From: Pseudomonadota bacterium
GTDB lineage: Bacteria; Desulfobacterota; Desulfobacteria; Desulfobacterales; JBDRRP01
Length of the DNA stretch: 37,600 bases
Reading direction: 5' to 3'
NCBI GenBank assembly: GCA_043825735.1
Contig: JBDRRP010000101.1
Location: 1-37,600 of the forward strand
The translations under genes were made by a program, and so were the position numbers. Positions 4,322 to 33,329 of this stretch are shown one piece after another (the stretch's first letter is position 1; the number at the start of each line of letters is the position of its first letter). A model generated the notes under the pieces. The model had not been told where the DNA came from. It searched no databases and saw only the letters and a list, made by a program, of their open reading frames with translations.

Positions 4322-4435
4322 CCCTAACGTTTTTGATCACCACGAAGTTCACGAAGGGCACGAAGATTTTCTAACCTACTCGTTTTATGGTTTTTCTTCG
4401 TGCACTTCGTGTCCTTCGTGGTTCACACTCAGTGC
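4322..4435. repeat. ~110-bp inverted CACGAAG-triad element, copy A
   Basis: (CACGAAGNN)x3, spacer, (CTTCGTGNN)x3. Close reverse complement of 19981-20094. Confidence 0.92.
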
Positions 4436-6679: not shown

Positions 6680-8134
6680 ATGGGAAAGGACAGCCTGCTC
6701 AAATCCACTGCAAAAGAAAAGACCGGTTCAAAAAAGGCGGGAGGTAAAAAGAAAAACGCTCCGGCCAAAAAAAATGTCTCCCCAAAGAAGACAGCAGCAA
6801 CCAATAAAACTGCGCCCGGCAAAAAAGCGGCGCCTGAGCAGGCTCCCGTAAAAAAAGCGGCGCCTCAGCAGGCTCCTGCAAAAAAACCGGCATCCCAGCA
6901 GGCCCCTGCGAATAAGGCGGACGTTAAAAAAACTACCGCGAAAGCCTCTCCACCCGCTATCAAGGATCTTCTCGCATTGTCATTCGACGCCTGGTCAACA
7001 CAGGCGCGCCCGGCGCCGAAGGTTCCGTCGGCCCCTTCCAAGGGCTCGGCCCCACCCTTTTTCTCTGGCGTCGACGCTGCCGAAGCGGCCCGCATGGGAA
7101 AGCTGCTCCTTGAAAAATTCGATATGACAGCCATCGAAGCCGCCGGTCGGGCATATGCTAAGAAAATGGCTGCTGCTGAAAAGGCTGCTGCTGAAAAAGC
7201 TGCCGCCGAAAAAGCTGCCGCCGAAAAAGCTGCCGCTGAAAAAGCTGCCGCTGAAAAAGCTGCCGCCGAAAAAGCTGCCGCCGAAAAAGCTGCCGCTGAA
7301 AAAGCGGCCGCCGAAAAAGCTGCCGCCGAAAAAGCTGCCGCCGAAAAAGCTGCCGCCGAAAAAGCTGCTGCTGAAAAAGCTGCTGCTGAAAAAGCTGCCG
7401 CCGAAAAAGTCACCGTCACTTATGAATCCGCTTATGAGAAACCGGGCAAAGCAGCGGCTCCGGTTGACCGATCCGGCCAGATCATGATGGGGGGCATCAT
7501 CGGCGTCATCGGATTGGTCTTTTTGATGCTCATCGGCGCCAGCATCAGCAACACCGGCAAATATTATATAACGCCCGGCGACGGCGCCCTCACCATTTAC
7601 CAGGGAAAGTTCGCGCCCTTGGGCAAAAAGCACCTCATCACCCTTCCTGGAATGGAACTGGCGGCGGAGCTGCGCCCGGTTTATGCCAAAACCGATGTCT
7701 ATCCGTTGATTTTTTCCCACTATCTGGGCAAAGCGGACGCGCTACTGCTCAATACCGGTGGATTCCCTGATTTCGATGGTATCAAGGGATATCTGGACAA
7801 AGCCCTTGCCTATGCAGCGAACAACGACGCCAAGAACGCCGTCTACCGCCGCATCGACGGCATCGATCTGCTGCTCTATCTTTACAAGGCCGACGTTGCC
7901 GCAAGCCGCGGCACCCTTGCCGATTACCAGCAAGCACTATCGCACTTGAACAGTGCCGCAAGCCTGAACCCTGATGCCTCTCAGGTGGATCTCATCGCTC
8001 AGAAAAAGGCCGCCATCGAAGCCACCATCGCTGACCTTGAAGCGGCGGCCACTGAGAAAGCCGCGGCTGAAGAGGCCGCTGCTGCCGAAGCCGCCGCCGC
8101 AGACAAAAACACCGACGAGACCAAAGCCAAATAG
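6680..8134 (+). CDS. Single-pass membrane protein with Lys/Ala/Pro-rich N-terminus, (AAAEK)x16 repeat and helical C-terminal domain
   Basis: AAGGGG RBS before ATG 6680. TM segment IMMGGIIGVIGLVFLMLIGASI. Confidence 0.8.
   Translation: MGKDSLLKSTAKEKTGSKKAGGKKKNAPAKKNVSPKKTAATNKTAPGKKAAPEQAPVKKAAPQQAPAKKPASQQAPANKADVKKTTAKASPPAIKDLLALSFDAWSTQARPAPKVPSAPSKGSAPPFFSGVDAAEAARMGKLLLEKFDMTAIEAAGRAYAKKMAAAEKAAAEKAAAEKAAAEKAAAEKAAAEKAAAEKAAAEKAAAEKAAAEKAAAEKAAAEKAAAEKAAAEKAAAEKAAAEKVTVTYESAYEKPGKAAAPVDRSGQIMMGGIIGVIGLVFLMLIGASISNTGKYYITPGDGALTIYQGKFAPLGKKHLITLPGMELAAELRPVYAKTDVYPLIFSHYLGKADALLLNTGGFPDFDGIKGYLDKALAYAANNDAKNAVYRRIDGIDLLLYLYKADVAASRGTLADYQQALSHLNSAASLNPDASQVDLIAQKKAAIEATIADLEAAATEKAAAEEAAAAEAAAADKNTDETKAK
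7169..7408 (+). repeat. Coding 15-bp tandem repeat GCTGCYGCYGAAAAA x16
   Basis: 240 bp, encodes AAAEK x16. Confidence 0.95.
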
Positions 8135-10514: not shown

Positions 10515-10762
10515 TTTGAACCACGAAGAGCACGAAGGGCACGAAGGGCACGAAGGAAAATCAGGACCACAACGCTCACACAGGCAATGTCGTAACACGA
10601 GGGCAATAGAAACCAATGGGATCGCGCAGGGCCGCTGAGGCGCAGAGAAAAACATTTGCAACCGTCCGCGCGGCGCTTTCGCCGTGCCTTCTCCGCGTCT
10701 CTGCGCCTCAGCGCGAAAACGGTTTTGCTTTTCTTCGTGATCTTCGTGTGCTTCGTGGTTTA
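10515..10762. repeat. Nested inverted-triad element (outer CACGAAG x4 / CTTCGTG x3, inner CGCAGAG/CTCTGCG)
   Basis: Outer arms at 10522-10555 and 10734-10758. Inner arms at 10622-10648 and 10690-10716. Confidence 0.88.
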
Positions 10763-15125: not shown

Positions 15126-15278
15126 AAACTCCAAATCTCAAATTCTAAATTCCAAACAAATTCCAAACTCTAAATTCCAAACAAAAACCTTATACCCAGA
15201 TAGAAGTTTGGCTCTCGTTTGTTTTTTTGGTGCTTGGAATTTGTTTGTAATTTGGTGCTTGAAGTTTGTGATTTATTT
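15126..15278. repeat. Inverted AAATTCCAAA/TTTGGTGCTTG low-complexity element, copy A
   Basis: AAATTCCAAAC-type units followed by complementary TTTGGTGCTTG(G/A)A(A/G)TTTG units. Paralogous to 33147-33300. Confidence 0.85.
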
Positions 15279-16583: not shown

Positions 16584-16709
16584 GACGGAGGTCAGAAGTC
16601 AGAGGTCAGAGGTCAGAGGTCAGAGGTCAGAGGTCAGAAGTCAGAAGTCAGAAGTCAGAGGACAGAGGACAGAGGTCAGAAGTCAGAAGTCAGAGGACAG
16701 AGGACAGAA
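16584..16709 (+). repeat. Heptamer tandem G(T/A)CAGA(G/A) x18
   Basis: 126 bp, starting 5 bp after the stop codon. The first unit is degenerate. Confidence 0.95.
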
Positions 16710-16927: not shown

Positions 16928-17320
16928 TTAACGCTTGGAGAACTGGAACCGCGCGCGGGCACCGCGCTGACCGTATTTTTTGCGTTCCTTGACTCTGGGA
17001 TCGCGCTTGACGAAACCGGCCCGCTTGAGCGGTGTCCGGTGCTCGGGGTTGGCGAGCATCAACGCACGGGTGATACCGTGGCGAATCGCACCGGCCTGCC
17101 CACTGGGTCCGCCGCCCTTGACCCGCACGACGATGTCGTAGTCACCGAGGGCATTGACCACCGCCAGTGGCTGACGCAGGATGGGAACGGCGGATTCAAC
17201 CTTGAAGTACTGTTCCACGGGTCGGTCGTTGACCGTAATAGTGCCGCTTCCCGGAGTGAGCCAAGTGCGGGCGATGGCGGTTTTGCGTTTGCCGGTGGCG
17301 TAGTAGCTGTTTTTTTCCAT
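16928..17320 (-). CDS. rpsI: 30S ribosomal protein S9
   Basis: [47 protein letters not shown]. Confidence 0.99.
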
Positions 17321-17350
17321 AGTCGTAGATACCTAAGGCGTAAAAAAGGT

Positions 17351-17785
17351 TTACTGTTCCAGCACTTGGGGCTGTTGGGCCTCGTGAGGATGCTCTGTGC
17401 CGGTGTAGACCTTGAGTTTTTTGATGAGTTGACGGCCGAGCCGATTCTTGGGAAGCATTCCCTTGACCGCAATACGAATGATATCCTCGGGACGCTTTTC
17501 CAGCAATTTTTCAGCGGTGATCTCTGTCAGACCGCCGATGTAACCACTGTGCCGGTAATAGGTTTTTTGGGTCCACTTGTTGCCGGTCATGACGATCTTG
17601 TCTGCATTGATCACGATCACCATATCGCCGGTATCTACATGCGGTGTGTAGATGGGTTTGTGCTTTCCACGAATTCGTGATGCCACCAGCGTGGCCAGAC
17701 GTCCCAGAACCTGCCCTTCGGCATCGACAACCCACCATTTCTCGTCTCGGTCAGATGCTTTAGCGCTATAAGTGTATTTTTTCAC
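17351..17785 (-). CDS. rplM: 50S ribosomal protein L13
   Basis: [41 protein letters not shown] start with AGGAG RBS. Confidence 0.99.
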
Positions 17786-17819
17786 GGTGTTCACTCCTAT
17801 CGGTGTTTCGAATCTGCGG

Positions 17820-17848
17820 TTTATAATGAAATGCCCCTGGTATGTCAA
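17820..17848 (-). promoter_or_regulatory. sigma70 promoter of rplM-rpsI
   Basis: TTGACA-17 bp-TATAAA on the minus strand. Confidence 0.8.
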
Positions 17849-17923
17849 CAGATAATCCCATTTTTTTCACGGTAGCGCCATTGTCCTAAAAACGTTCCAT
17901 TCGCGCAAAAACGCCCCACCGTG

Positions 17924-17952
17924 TTGACACGGTTCTGCCAACCCTCTAAGTT
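17924..17952 (+). promoter_or_regulatory. Putative divergent sigma70 promoter
   Basis: TTGACA-17 bp-TAAGTT. Confidence 0.55.
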
Positions 17953-17953
17953 A

Positions 17954-18096
17954 GTGCCCATCCATAAACGGCATCTTTTGGCCCAGAGCGGCGTTTTCGC
18001 ACTTTTCAAAATCCTCGAAATAGCACGCTATTCCTCCGGTTTCGAAAATGCTCAAGCCTTGCTCTGAACCAAAATCTACCATTTCTGGATGGACAC
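17954..18096 (+). mobile_element. MITE/REP-like ~145-bp hairpin element, copy 2
   Basis: Nearly identical to 5446-5589. Its left end begins at the G of TAG. Confidence 0.85.
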
Positions 18097-18106
18097 AAGT
18101 TAGTGT

Positions 18107-18384
18107 CCGCCCGGAAGCGGCGCGTCACATGCGCCTTGCGGCGCGTCAGTTGTTGGCTGCGCCAACGTCAGTTGCCCCTTCGGGGCGTCAATGGCGTCTT
18201 CGACGCGTCACATGCGCCTGCCGGCGCGTCAGTTGTTGGCTGCGCCAACGTCAATTGTGCTTCGGCACGTCAATTACAGCGCAGCGCCATGACGACGAAG
18301 CCTATTGACGTCGGCGGAGCCGACAATTGACGGTCGCGCAGCGACCATATGACGGCGAAGCCTATTGACGCCGGCGAAGCCGGC
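18107..18384. repeat. Bidirectional array of GTCA-type 7-bp linkers alternating with variable mini-hairpins
   Basis: 8 GTCANNN linkers (18124-18275) followed by 5 NNNTGAC linkers (18288-18369), separated by 9-15-bp palindromes. Confidence 0.88.
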
Positions 18385-18399
18385 CAGTGGAGAACCCCC

Positions 18400-19008
18400 T
18401 TGGAACCTCTTGAAATAGAAGTCAAATTCCACACCCCTGCCGCTGAGACAATTCGCCAGCAGATTATTGCCATCGGCGCTGCAGGCCACGGCAGGGTCTT
18501 CGAATCAAATGCGACCTACGACGACGGAACACAGTCGCTCAAAGACCGCGGCATGCTGCTGCGCCTGCGGCGGACGCAAGACCTAAACACCCTGACACTG
18601 AAAGCGCCGGCAGCAACGGTCAGCAACGAATACAAGATCATGAAAGAGCTGGAATCGGCGATATCGGACCCCGGCGCCATCCACAACATTCTGGAAACAC
18701 TGGGCTTTCGGATCTGGCGCCGGTACGAAAAGTGGCGGGAGACCTTCCGCTTGGACGATGTGACATTTTGTCTCGACACCATGCCGTTTGGCGATTTCAT
18801 CGAGTTGGAAGGACCGGGAGGGCGCATTCGCGAAATGGCAGACCAACTGGGATTCAACTGGTCGCGCCGCATCCTGATCAATTATTACGGTATTTTTGAT
18901 ATCATCCGCGCGCAGCTCGCCCTGCCCTTCAACGACATCGCCTTTGATCGATTTCAGGGCATCGATGTGGACCTGTCGCGCTATCGCACCATGATGGAGG
19001 CCGGCTGA
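18400..19008 (+). CDS. CYTH-domain protein (class IV adenylate cyclase-like)
   Basis: EIEVKF, LRLRR, LTLK, YEKWRETF, FIELE. TTG start with GGAGA RBS. Confidence 0.88.
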   Translation: MEPLEIEVKFHTPAAETIRQQIIAIGAAGHGRVFESNATYDDGTQSLKDRGMLLRLRRTQDLNTLTLKAPAATVSNEYKIMKELESAISDPGAIHNILETLGFRIWRRYEKWRETFRLDDVTFCLDTMPFGDFIELEGPGGRIREMADQLGFNWSRRILINYYGIFDIIRAQLALPFNDIAFDRFQGIDVDLSRYRTMMEAG

Positions 19009-19169
19009 TGGCGCCGGCGCGCAAACCGCTACCCCAAAAAACCGAGCCCGCTGATGCACAATCATCGAGTTGACTCTAACCGCAGCGCCGAATGAGAACC
19101 ACGAAGAACACGAAGTGCTCGAAGCACACCCTGAAAACCATTCAATGGTCCGGGTAACGTCAAATCACC

Positions 19170-19928
19170 ATGATCCGCATCATGACCCTCAATTTGCGTT
19201 TCGGACTCGCCAAAGACGGACCCGACGGGTGGCACCACCGTCAGCAGGCGTATCCGTCGCTCTTTTCATCGTTTCCGTCTGATCTTTACTGTTTTCAGGA
19301 GGCCAACGACTTTCAGCTCAGGGCCTTGAGCGCATGGCTGCCAGATCACCGCCCCATCGGTATCCGCCGTCCGTCCCCGCCCTTCTGGCAGCACACCCCC
19401 ATATTCTTTCCGAAAACATGGCAACTGCTGGCCGCAGAACACATCTTTCTCAGCGCGACCCCTCATGTGCCCAGCCGGCAGCGCAGCAGCAGATGGCCTC
19501 GCCAGTGCACTATCGGCGAGTTCAGAGTCGGCACGCACCGCCTTCTCTGCGTCAACACCCATTTTGACTTTGCACCCGAAACCCAGCGGGAAAGTGCACG
19601 CATCATCGGCGAACGCCTTCAGCGATATCCGCAGAGCGTGCCCTGTATCGTCGTTGGAGATTTCAATGCCCGGCCGGGTGGACGCTGCCACCGGCTCATG
19701 ACCGGCGGCGGGTGGGTGCCGGGGCGACAATTTCAATCCGCTTTTGGTGCGTCATCACCGGGCTCTTTCCATGGTTTCAGCGGCGCGGCGGCGGAAAGGC
19801 ACATCGACTGGATTCTTTATGACGGCCCGGTGCGGGTCGTCTCGGCCGCTGCGGTCACACAGTCCTTTGAAGGAATCTACCCCTCGGACCACTTCCCCAT
19901 GATAGCCACGCTGGAGCAGGTCGAATAA
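19170..19928 (+). CDS. Endonuclease/exonuclease/phosphatase (EEP) family protein
   Basis: MTLNLR, FQE, NTHFD, GDFN, IDWIL, SDHFP. Confidence 0.92.
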   Translation: MIRIMTLNLRFGLAKDGPDGWHHRQQAYPSLFSSFPSDLYCFQEANDFQLRALSAWLPDHRPIGIRRPSPPFWQHTPIFFPKTWQLLAAEHIFLSATPHVPSRQRSSRWPRQCTIGEFRVGTHRLLCVNTHFDFAPETQRESARIIGERLQRYPQSVPCIVVGDFNARPGGRCHRLMTGGGWVPGRQFQSAFGASSPGSFHGFSGAAAERHIDWILYDGPVRVVSAAAVTQSFEGIYPSDHFPMIATLEQVE

Positions 19929-19980: not shown

Positions 19981-20094
19981 CACTGCGTGTGAACCACGAA
20001 GGCCACGAAGTGCACGAAGAAAACCTAAAAATAAGTGTGTTAGAAACACCTTCGTGTCCTTCGTGAACTTCGTGGTGATCAAAAACGTCGGGGG
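19981..20094. repeat. ~110-bp inverted CACGAAG-triad element, copy B
   Basis: Reverse complement of 4322-4435, including the flanks GTGTGAAC and GTGATCAAAAACGT. Confidence 0.92.
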
Positions 20095-33111: not shown

Positions 33112-33300
33112 TTGTTGATTGTTGATTGGGGATTGGGTGGGAAGGCGAAATCACAAATTCCAAATGACAAGTTCCAAACAAATGACAAATTCCAAACAAA
33201 AACATTGAAACCAACTTAAAGTTTCAGATTCGTTTGGGATTTGGTGCTTGTAATTTGGAATTTATTTGAAATTTGGTGCTTGTAATTTGGGATTTACTTT
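33108..33300. repeat. TTGATTG heptamers plus inverted AAATTCCAAA element, copy B
   Basis: TTGATTG x3 overlaps the stop codon. AAATTCCAAA units at 33147-33200 face TTTGGTGCTTGTAATTTGG units at 33232-33295. Confidence 0.85.
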
Positions 33301-33329
33301 GGCGCTTGTCGTTTGGTGAGCAGCGGGGA

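Follow-up and report, generated by a model that had tools for sequence, protein, structure and literature searches.

In Coxiella burnetii, the intervening sequence (IVS) of the 23S rRNA is a 428-nt selfish element that carries an open reading frame (ORF) of the PF05635 family and is excised by RNase III (PMC4990558), and 23S_rRNA_IVP genes have also been reported inside cas loci (PMC3936711). Convergent pairs of tandem heptamers in Xanthomonas (GGGAATC) and the heptamers of Nostoc are intergenic, capable of forming stem-loops and mostly transcribed (Rehm et al., 2015; PMC4692102). The CGTC families of repetitive extragenic palindromes (REPs) have stems of 8-9 bp with A/T pairs at positions 1-2, loops of 4-5 nt and a CCA tail, and they occur as dispersed singletons and mostly as head-to-head dimers, with negligible head-to-tail pairs, rare clusters and no known transposase (Di Nocera et al., 2013; PMC3733652). 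In addition, mini-hairpin DNA of the types d(GCGNAGC) and d(GCGNNAGC) is unusually stable, with a G-N-A loop closed by a C:G pair (PMC13037366). In this work, we analysed a stretch of 37.6 kb (the window), which is one entire contig of a 6.8-Mb metagenome-assembled genome in 160 contigs (MAG; G000), and focused on an array at positions 18107-18384 in which short constant segments with a GTCA or TGAC tag alternate with short palindromes in two opposed arms. This array probably represents the two arms of a gene-less copy of an IVS-type hairpin cassette, that is, of an element which elsewhere encloses a PF05635 gene.

The array occupies the intergenic spacer between rplM and a CYTH-domain gene, and within this one spacer it consists of two inverted arms of short tandem repeats:

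18124..18275, + strand: left arm, with eight GTCA tags and seven complete units, each made up of GTCA, 3 nt and a palindrome (stem of 4-6 bp, T-N(1-2)-C loop)
18276..18289, no strand: centre at which the orientation flips, a degenerate unit with no room for a gene and no PF05635-type ORF
18290..18384, + strand: right arm, with five reversed TGAC tags, G-N-A loops and the end GCCGGC-GAA-GCCGGC

The GTCA tags start at 18124, 18145, 18167, 18187, 18207, 18228, 18250 and 18269 (steps of 19-22 nt) and the TGAC tags at 18290, 18306, 18328, 18350 and 18366, giving eight GTCA units followed by five TGAC units at a period of 19-22 nt. This bears out the bidirectional array of short regular period that an earlier note on this DNA had described; the linkers and palindromes that it listed are all in place. 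Tandem Repeats Finder reported a period of 21 with 5.5 copies and 68% matches. Between the tags, the interior of a unit is a 3-nt segment plus a short G+C-rich palindrome. Perfect stems of 4-6 bp were found in 7/7 left-arm units bounded by two tags and in three of the four such units of the right arm (3, 6 and 6 bp), the fourth being broken; the terminal hairpin at 18370-18384 is perfect but has a tag on a single side only. The left-arm loops have the form T-N-C or T-N-N-C, and those on the right show the complement, G-N-A; over 18-38 nt, the right arm is 77-83% complementary to the left (inverted repeats I2-I5). A contig from another sediment metagenome (run X2) spans 18151-18260 with one additional C at 18259, which gives the canonical GTGCC-TTC-GGCAC, and the window unit has therefore lost one stem base. 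The arms also contain higher-order repeats of 83 nt (93% identical) and 60 nt (85% identical), and they appear to have grown via the copying of four-unit and three-unit blocks, respectively.

The earlier note had likened this layout to an inverted CRISPR array. The likeness does not hold, as the constant part is only 7 nt long and the variable parts are recurring palindromes copied in multi-unit blocks; constant repeats of 24-48 nt with unique spacers of similar size, as in CRISPR, are absent from the array. The array is, in prediction, strongly structured: the RNA fold of 18100-18399 reaches -158.1 kcal/mol against -125 ± 4.9 for 200 shuffles (z -6.7), and the DNA folds of the same interval have z values of -5.9 (+ strand) and -5.3 (- strand). 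The predicted minimum-free-energy fold is chiefly one long, imperfect and interrupted stem between the arms, with mini-hairpins only on the surplus left units. Chains of at least three CGTCA/TGACG motifs at a spacing of 15-24 nt number 21 in the genome and 0 in a 3-Mb mononucleotide shuffle.

The evidence for a cassette comes from other genomes of the same order. The earlier note had suggested looking for linked HUH or REP-associated tyrosine transposase (RAYT) genes or nucleases; the search it proposed found none, and found a four-helix-bundle family instead. This family, PF05635 ("23S rRNA intervening-sequence protein", about 125 aa), is enclosed in these genomes by the same type of arm: a PF05635 gene in G003 has seven GTCA-hairpin units on one side and ten TGAC-hairpin units on the other, and in G056 a 116-aa PF05635 ORF lies inside convergent arrays (12 units and at least 8 units). 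Arms of the window family match arms that enclose the gene elsewhere, since 8/8 blastn-short matches of the G003 arm in the 6.8-Mb G000 genome fell inside G000 arrays. The filled G003 cassette is predicted to fold with its arms paired over their full length and the ORF in the loop (-290 against -200 ± 9 kcal/mol, z -10), and arm pairing, in this relative as in the window array, is seen in predicted folds only. As the arms in the window are only 14 nt apart, with no PF05635 gene between them, and no cognate gene is present in G000, the window copy was classed as an empty form.

The type of arm follows the protein clade. The G003 and G056 proteins are 60% identical to each other and at most 34% identical (medians 25-26%) to 30 other sampled PF05635 proteins, including G056 paralogues; the comparison leaves out four loci with a stop codon in the Pfam match. 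When 401 genomes were searched with the protein, 39 gave relatives at E ≤ 1e-22, and 24 loci were examined. Thirteen of them are at least 57% identical to the G003 protein: seven have GTCA-hairpin units on both flanks in convergent polarity, four have them on one flank, and the remaining two (L420 and L421) have arms of pure GTCATTG/GTCATTA heptamers. Among the loci with 44-54% identity, units of convergent polarity were found in 0/11, and units of opposite polarity numbered 0-1 per flank. More broadly, PF05635 genes occur in 40/61 order genomes. With four loci left out because their flanks were short or masked, 27/32 genes have left and right flanks whose complementarity exceeds the 95th percentile of 132 shifted controls; the observed median is 37 and the highest control value 26. 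At least one flank is tandem-repetitive in 30/34, mostly with a period of 7-8. All three full PF05635 genes of G000 itself have inverted short-repeat arms of other sequence families. One clade with GTCA arms, and distant paralogues, even in the same genome, with other arms, is the pattern expected under mutual recognition between protein and repeat.

The constant "linker" of the array would then be the heptamer repeat of the cassette arms, with the mini-hairpins interspersed between heptamers: a 7-nt GTCAWWK segment recurs every 20-22 nt in the window array, and the pure heptamer arms of L420 and L421 belong to the same clade. The odd layout of constant 7-mers and variable hairpins thereby gains a concrete home, in the arms of a cassette that carries PF05635. 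Elhai and co-workers reportedly described, in 2008, small mobile repeats inside cyanobacterial heptamer repeats.

In several GTDB families, clade cassettes recur in the spacer beside a gene that resembles methylmalonyl-CoA epimerase (N-terminus MKILKIDHLG...), and they frequently follow an aminotransferase gene (G003 C1:639178, G373 C14:72895, G108 C66:34626, G288 C456:9155, G310 C2:176528 and G159 C201:3091); in G037 (C8, at about 2640; L011) this site holds no more than a 3-unit mini-array. This spacer is either a long-lived site or a hot spot.

In G000, eleven arrays were found by blastn with eight arrays as queries, and in 11/11 the GTCA arm precedes the TGAC arm. Their 110 units bounded by two tags fall into 15 stem types, all of which start with G, and in 71 of the units the stem is perfect over at least 4 bp (5-6 bp in 70 and 4 bp in one); when the 3' halves were shuffled among units 500 times, such units numbered 21.5 on average and 37 at most. 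The earlier claim that stems vary with pairing kept is thus upheld as regards pairing; the stems are not free, being 15 recurring types copied in blocks. A T-N(1-2)-C loop is present in 66 of the 71 perfect units, most commonly TTC (24) and TGC (23). The order of stems is non-random: neighbouring stems have a mutual information of 2.27 in G000 (null maximum 1.88) and of 0.99 in G056 (null maximum 0.71). For the linker triplet and the preceding or following hairpin, mutual information exceeds the null by little in either case. A check of the 15 unit types across G000 revealed no single units outside arrays, the seven outside matches being without a tag. The earlier note had entertained an unknown hairpin-adding mechanism; a step-by-step model of this kind, in which each insertion duplicates the 7-nt linker, was tried and rejected: adjacent linkers are identical no oftener than in shuffled arrays (7/86 against 11.1 expected in G000, 35/133 against 41.5 in G056).

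According to Pfam matches of the flanking ORFs, seven of the G000 arrays lie between co-directional genes, two between convergent genes and one, the window array, between divergent genes, with one unclear; the co-directional sites include ilvN-ilvC, pyruvoyl arginine decarboxylase-agmatinase and enoyl-CoA hydratase-coaE. At ilvN-ilvC, the spacer of G000 contains an array of 515 nt, which is missing from both G001 and G002. In G001, which belongs to the same genus, the rplM-CYTH spacer is about 190 nt long and has promoter-like hexamers, and it contains neither the array nor the MITE (miniature inverted-repeat transposable element) that precedes the array in the window; it follows that both were inserted into the leader of the CYTH gene along the lineage of G000. 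As G001 lacks an array at rplM-CYTH and at ilvN-ilvC, these two G000 arrays are recent gains. At C127:820-1344, the outermost units are mutual inverted copies. No duplication of the target site was legible, the spacers of G000 and G001 having diverged too far, and in the read data examined, no empty-site allele was seen.

Seven of the 11 G000 arrays lie on contigs C3, C90 and C127 (two 2.3 kb apart, three within 20 kb, and two 10 kb apart), which suggests local spread or a chromosomal adjacency of these contigs. A mini-array with the same stems as in G000 was found in G001 (locus L010; C72, at about 3700). The orthologous spacer in G000 (C90:44089-44215, between co-directional genes) holds a CACGAAG-type convergent array instead, and different arm families replace each other at this one site.

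Searches beyond the genus revealed a patchy family. The strict pattern CGTCANNTG...x3 matched 5/401 order genomes, among which only G000 (36 matches) and G056 (101 matches) have true hairpin arrays, the matches in G094, G186 and G225 being plain heptamer repeats; a scan of the phylum matched 1/401 genomes, namely G000 itself. The strict scan undercounts because arms with other linkers escape it (G003, G159, G310, G231, G373 and G288). The G056 loci retrieved contain 155 units, of which 143 are perfect, with 12 stems that are almost all unlike those of G000; common to both genomes are the GTCA tag, an outer G:C pair, a closing C:G pair, T-N-C loops and a period of 20-22 nt. No arrays were found in the two sampled congeners of G056 (G335 and G396). 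Metagenome contigs contain at least six further arrays with yet other stems, and the five bidirectional ones (L260, L293, L302, L314 and L319) all have the same polarity (5/5). Among the 80 matches listed for the metagenome scan, 68 were without a unit (many of them a conserved chaperonin coding stretch) and six had at least three units. The 80 matches listed for the genome-contig scan were mostly chance matches, heptamer repeats and 22-bp iteron-like repeats, with G000 not among them, and viral contigs gave one match, which is coding sequence and not an array. A blastn search of the array against 300 order genomes, with the best two candidates per genome scored, gave short weak matches and one true mini-array, that of G001 (L010). 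In metagenome locus L314, GTCA mini-hairpins, short non-palindromic GTCA units and eleven 11-nt TGAC repeats occur in one array, the tag being kept while the unit type changes. Hexamer repeats of the ACGACA/ACGATT kind adjoin several GTCA arrays in G056 (L218, L222, L226 and L381), and hexamers of this kind are also the arms of another four-helix-bundle gene of that genome (C6:79251-79562).

Compared with the described systems, the filled relatives resemble the helix-45 IVS of Coxiella burnetii, with its S23p ORF, in holding a PF05635 gene in the loop of a long stem formed by complementary flanks; unlike that IVS, the window copy lies outside rRNA, is without an ORF and has arms of tandem heptamers and mini-palindromes, and RNase III cutting is carried over only as an analogy (PMC4990558). 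With the Xanthomonas heptamer pairs, the array shares an intergenic position and convergent short tandem repeats able to form stem-loops, whereas its unit is 20-22 nt long (heptamer plus palindrome), is not G-rich and has no quadruplex potential; moreover, no link to a gene family is reported for the Xanthomonas and Nostoc heptamers in the available portion of that paper, and the window family is linked to PF05635 (PMC4692102). Like tagged REPs (GTAG, CGTC, bacterial interspersed mosaic elements or BIMEs, and REPINs), the arrays are extragenic, lie mostly between co-directional or convergent genes and combine a tag with stem sub-families (Di Nocera et al., 2013; PMC3733652). Unlike CGTC REP families 1-4, the window family has stems of 5-6 bp with an outer G:C pair and loops of 3-4 nt, and its units are found only in head-to-tail arrays, never singly. 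The GTAG-1 repeats of Thauera sp. MZ1T, found via a tandem-repeat database, likewise have 5-bp stems and gene-adjacent arrays; their tag, in contrast, is GTAG and their super-family is RAYT-linked, a comparison made by description only (PMC3733652). As in stable DNA mini-hairpins, one strand of each arm has G-N-A or G-N-N-A loops closed by C:G (in the right arm GCGAAGC, GCGGAGC and GCGCAGC); the DNA mini-hairpin is, unlike the array, a physico-chemical motif and not a genetic element, and we infer its relevance for single-stranded DNA (ssDNA; PMC13037366).

The pattern thus occurs elsewhere and is unlike the GTAG and CGTC REP families catalogued in the available portion of PMC3733652, two points on which the earlier note had made its account depend. 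We found no description of short-repeat or hairpin arms around PF05635 genes in the literature, and nothing closer in the main texts on small dispersed repeats, mini-hairpins and Desulfobacter repeats; the supplements of PMC3733652, which list REP families per species, could hold a closer one. The novel points are an arm type in which hairpins interleave with heptamers, its confinement to a single clade in which pure-heptamer arms are found as well, and the spread of empty copies in a genome without the cognate gene.

We propose a cassette in full copies of which tandem GTCA-W-W-K heptamers make up the left arm and their reverse complement the right arm, with the heptamers alternating in one lineage with 13-15-nt G+C-rich palindromes. 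The arms enclose the PF05635 gene of about 125 aa, and in the window copy the gene is missing and the arms abut. The element and the MITE would have entered the spacer between the promoter-like site and the ribosome-binding site (RBS) of the CYTH gene after the split from G001, and arm length would then have been altered by duplication of 3- and 4-unit blocks. On transcription, the arms would fold back into a long interrupted duplex; by analogy with the intervening sequences of rRNA, RNase III might excise or trim this duplex, and its removal would account for the tolerance of such inserts in leaders and operons. CYTH would be affected, if at all, as a side effect via leader stability or processing, and for the CYTH gene itself the array is probably incidental. 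The most likely helper for spread would be a clade-specific four-helix-bundle protein that acts on the heptamers and was not found in G000.

A more specific form of this idea is tentative, and we consider it unlikely: the four-helix-bundle proteins of the clade would read the GTCA-W-W-K heptamer, as DNA or RNA, gene and arms would form a self-recognising mobile cassette, gene-less arrays would be non-autonomous copies moved or maintained in trans, and the C(GNA)G mini-hairpins would space and present the heptamers. Were this true, a very large orphan family and the excess of heptamer repeats in bacteria would both acquire a first function, and pure heptamer and hairpin-interleaved arms in one clade would form a natural specificity series. 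The link between clade and arm type names the exact oligonucleotides for testing. In addition, housekeeping genes acquire such elements in their 5' leaders and operon spacers (ilvN-ilvC, arginine decarboxylase-agmatinase and rplM-CYTH) within the lifetime of a genus, which is relevant to annotation, operon models and MAG assembly.

Several points weigh against an empty cassette. A PF05635 gene was found in or beside 0/11 G000 arrays, and a close homologue of the arm-specific clade was not found in G000 (best tblastn match 36% over 76 aa), which leaves the mover or maintainer of the G000 copies unexplained. Most G056 arrays are single arms of up to 28 units, in either orientation and with no partner arm, a finding that would not be expected from a cassette. 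The gene may also be a later arrival in hairpins that were already there, and is not necessarily the element's core. Cutting of these arms by RNase III would be an analogy only, and the T-N-C/G-N-A loops with their C:G closing pair would suit an ssDNA mechanism better than RNA. The array has thin cover in a sediment metatranscriptome (run X3; depth 2.5-9), with rearranged copies and possible DNA carry-over, and two RNA runs from the study that also yielded run X1 (X9 and X10) cover next to none of the stretch, X9 reaching 1/30 bins. Finally, the MAG is fragmented into its 160 contigs and has an estimated contamination of 3.7%.

The main rival to the empty cassette reverses the order of events: the hairpin arrays would come first, as satellite-like repeats that expand by slippage or unequal recombination at stable hairpins, and the gene would home into them later, as into rRNA helices, so that the window array was never a cassette. 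This is rather unlikely in our judgement. It is in line with the block duplications of 83 and 60 nt, with the non-random stem order in G000 and G056, with the many single-arm arrays of G056, with the emptiness of all 11 G000 arrays and the lack of a cognate gene, and with the spacer whose array is of the GTCA type in G001 and of the convergent CACGAAG type in G000. Random homing, however, would not be expected to leave GTCA-hairpin units on at least one flank in 11/13 close homologues and in 0/11 distant ones. The fixed GTCA-first polarity (11/11 in G000, 5/5 in metagenomes and 7/7 in clade loci with units on both flanks) needs a directional process, and slippage alone leaves the spread to 11 unlinked spacers unexplained.

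A REP- or BIME-like origin is improbable. Under this explanation, the units would be tagged extragenic palindromes, an HUH enzyme of the Y1/RAYT type would read the hairpins in ssDNA and cut at GTCA, and the arrays would be its products. As in tagged REPs, the palindromes are short and rich in G+C, have at one end an unpaired tetranucleotide that is constant, and fall into stem sub-families (PMC3733652), and the G-N-A loops with a closing C:G pair match very stable DNA mini-hairpins; the distribution is patchy, with arrays in G056 and none in its congeners G335 and G396, and Y1 genes are likewise present in G056 and absent from these two. Nevertheless, neither singletons nor simple dimers occur outside arrays, Y1_Tnp matches are flanked by GTCA units in 0/8 cases in G000 and 0/6 in G056, and head-to-tail arrays are negligible for CGTC REPs (PMC3733652). 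In G056, a palindrome of another kind flanks the RAYT-like gene, and the IS200 copies of that genome have ends of their own. The orientation of arrays alternates on G056 contig C3, and there is therefore no replication-strand bias. At G056 C32:1317-1661 (L229), a RAYT-sized Y1 gene has a different palindromic repeat on both sides and three tandem copies of it downstream, a REP-like system distinct from the GTCA arrays, of which this genome has the most.

It is very improbable that the array is a phased DNA-binding platform, presenting one tag per two helical turns to a nucleoid or replication protein outside the four-helix-bundle family. The period of 19-22 nt and the constant 7-9 nt C-GTCA-WW-K-G segment would fit; no candidate protein is known, however, unit length varies between 16 and 24 nt, so phasing drifts, and the pure-heptamer arms of the same protein clade have a period of 7 nt.

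Around the array, the locus has the following features.

17351..17848, - strand: rplM (ribosomal protein L13), the divergent left neighbour (Pfam Ribosomal_L13, E 3.4e-52, match from residue 36); its true start is probably inside this ORF
17924..17952, + strand: promoter-like hexamers TTGACA-17 nt-TAAGTT, probably the CYTH promoter to judge by the sequence (G001 has TTGACA-18-TAATCT at the equivalent place)
17954..18096, no strand: 143-nt MITE with terminal inverted repeats GTGYCCATCCA...TGGATGGRCAC (inverted repeat I1, direct repeat D4)
18097..18123, + strand: junction, with a degenerate second MITE end (AAGTTAGTGTCC; D4, 76% identical to 17948-17972) and a first imperfect hairpin before the first tag
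18389..19008, + strand: RBS GGAGAA (18389-18394) and the CYTH-domain gene, with TTG start at 18400 and stop at 19008 (Pfam CYTH, E 2.3e-15)

The array ends at 18384, just before the RBS of the CYTH gene, as the earlier note had seen. The TTG at 18400 behind GGAGAA appears to be the best-placed start: the G001 orthologue is 65% identical with an alignment from residue 2, and an alternative ATG at 18349 would add 17 codons inside the array that have no counterpart in G001. The promoter that the earlier note had placed upstream of the array stands in part, since both hexamers are present; an overlooked MITE intervenes, and a consensus scan for promoters and terminators called none of either (0 and 0), the hexamers going uncalled because TAAGTT matches only 3/6. 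The least credible explanation, a dedicated cis-regulatory leader or small RNA that controls CYTH or rplM, has in its favour the position of this non-coding, strongly structured, bidirectional array between the promoter-like site and the CYTH RBS, and fails on the absence of the array from the orthologous G001 leader, the presence of the same element beside unrelated genes at 10 other loci, the lack of conservation seen upstream of CYTH genes across species, and an Rfam search of 17000-19500 (E up to 10) that gave only a weak chance match to Xoo1 (E 0.36; 24 bits against a gathering score of 70).

The MITE sits between the -10 hexamer and the array, directly behind the -10, with AAGTTA on both of its sides. 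Its terminal motif GTGYCCATCCA occurs 139 times in the genome compared with 6.5 expected, and in run X1, the likely source sample, its summed contig depth is 1479-2047, compared with a flank depth of about 23. Family members usually have TA or TTA before the motif and comprise several internal sequence types, and MITE fragments adjoin arrays at C155:8480-8511 and C127:10753.

The window holds other repeats as well. Six more convergent pairs of short tandem repeats lie in intergenic positions (1925-2020, 4341-4420, 10522-10757, 15126-15278, 19994-20074 and 33148-33318), with the units CGCAGAGG, CACGAAGGG, AAATTCC and relatives; they look like empty hairpin elements of other arm families, and the AAATTCC type resembles the arms of a four-helix-bundle gene of G000 at C151:12274-12588. 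At 16588-16708, right after an M24 peptidase gene, about 17 copies of GAGGTCA (equivalent to GTCAGAG) form a single arm with the same GTCA tag. Long tandem arrays are present at 131-479, with 38.8 copies of the 9-mer CCAAACGAT, and at 7169-7409, with 16 copies of the 15-mer GCTGCCGCCGAAAAA.

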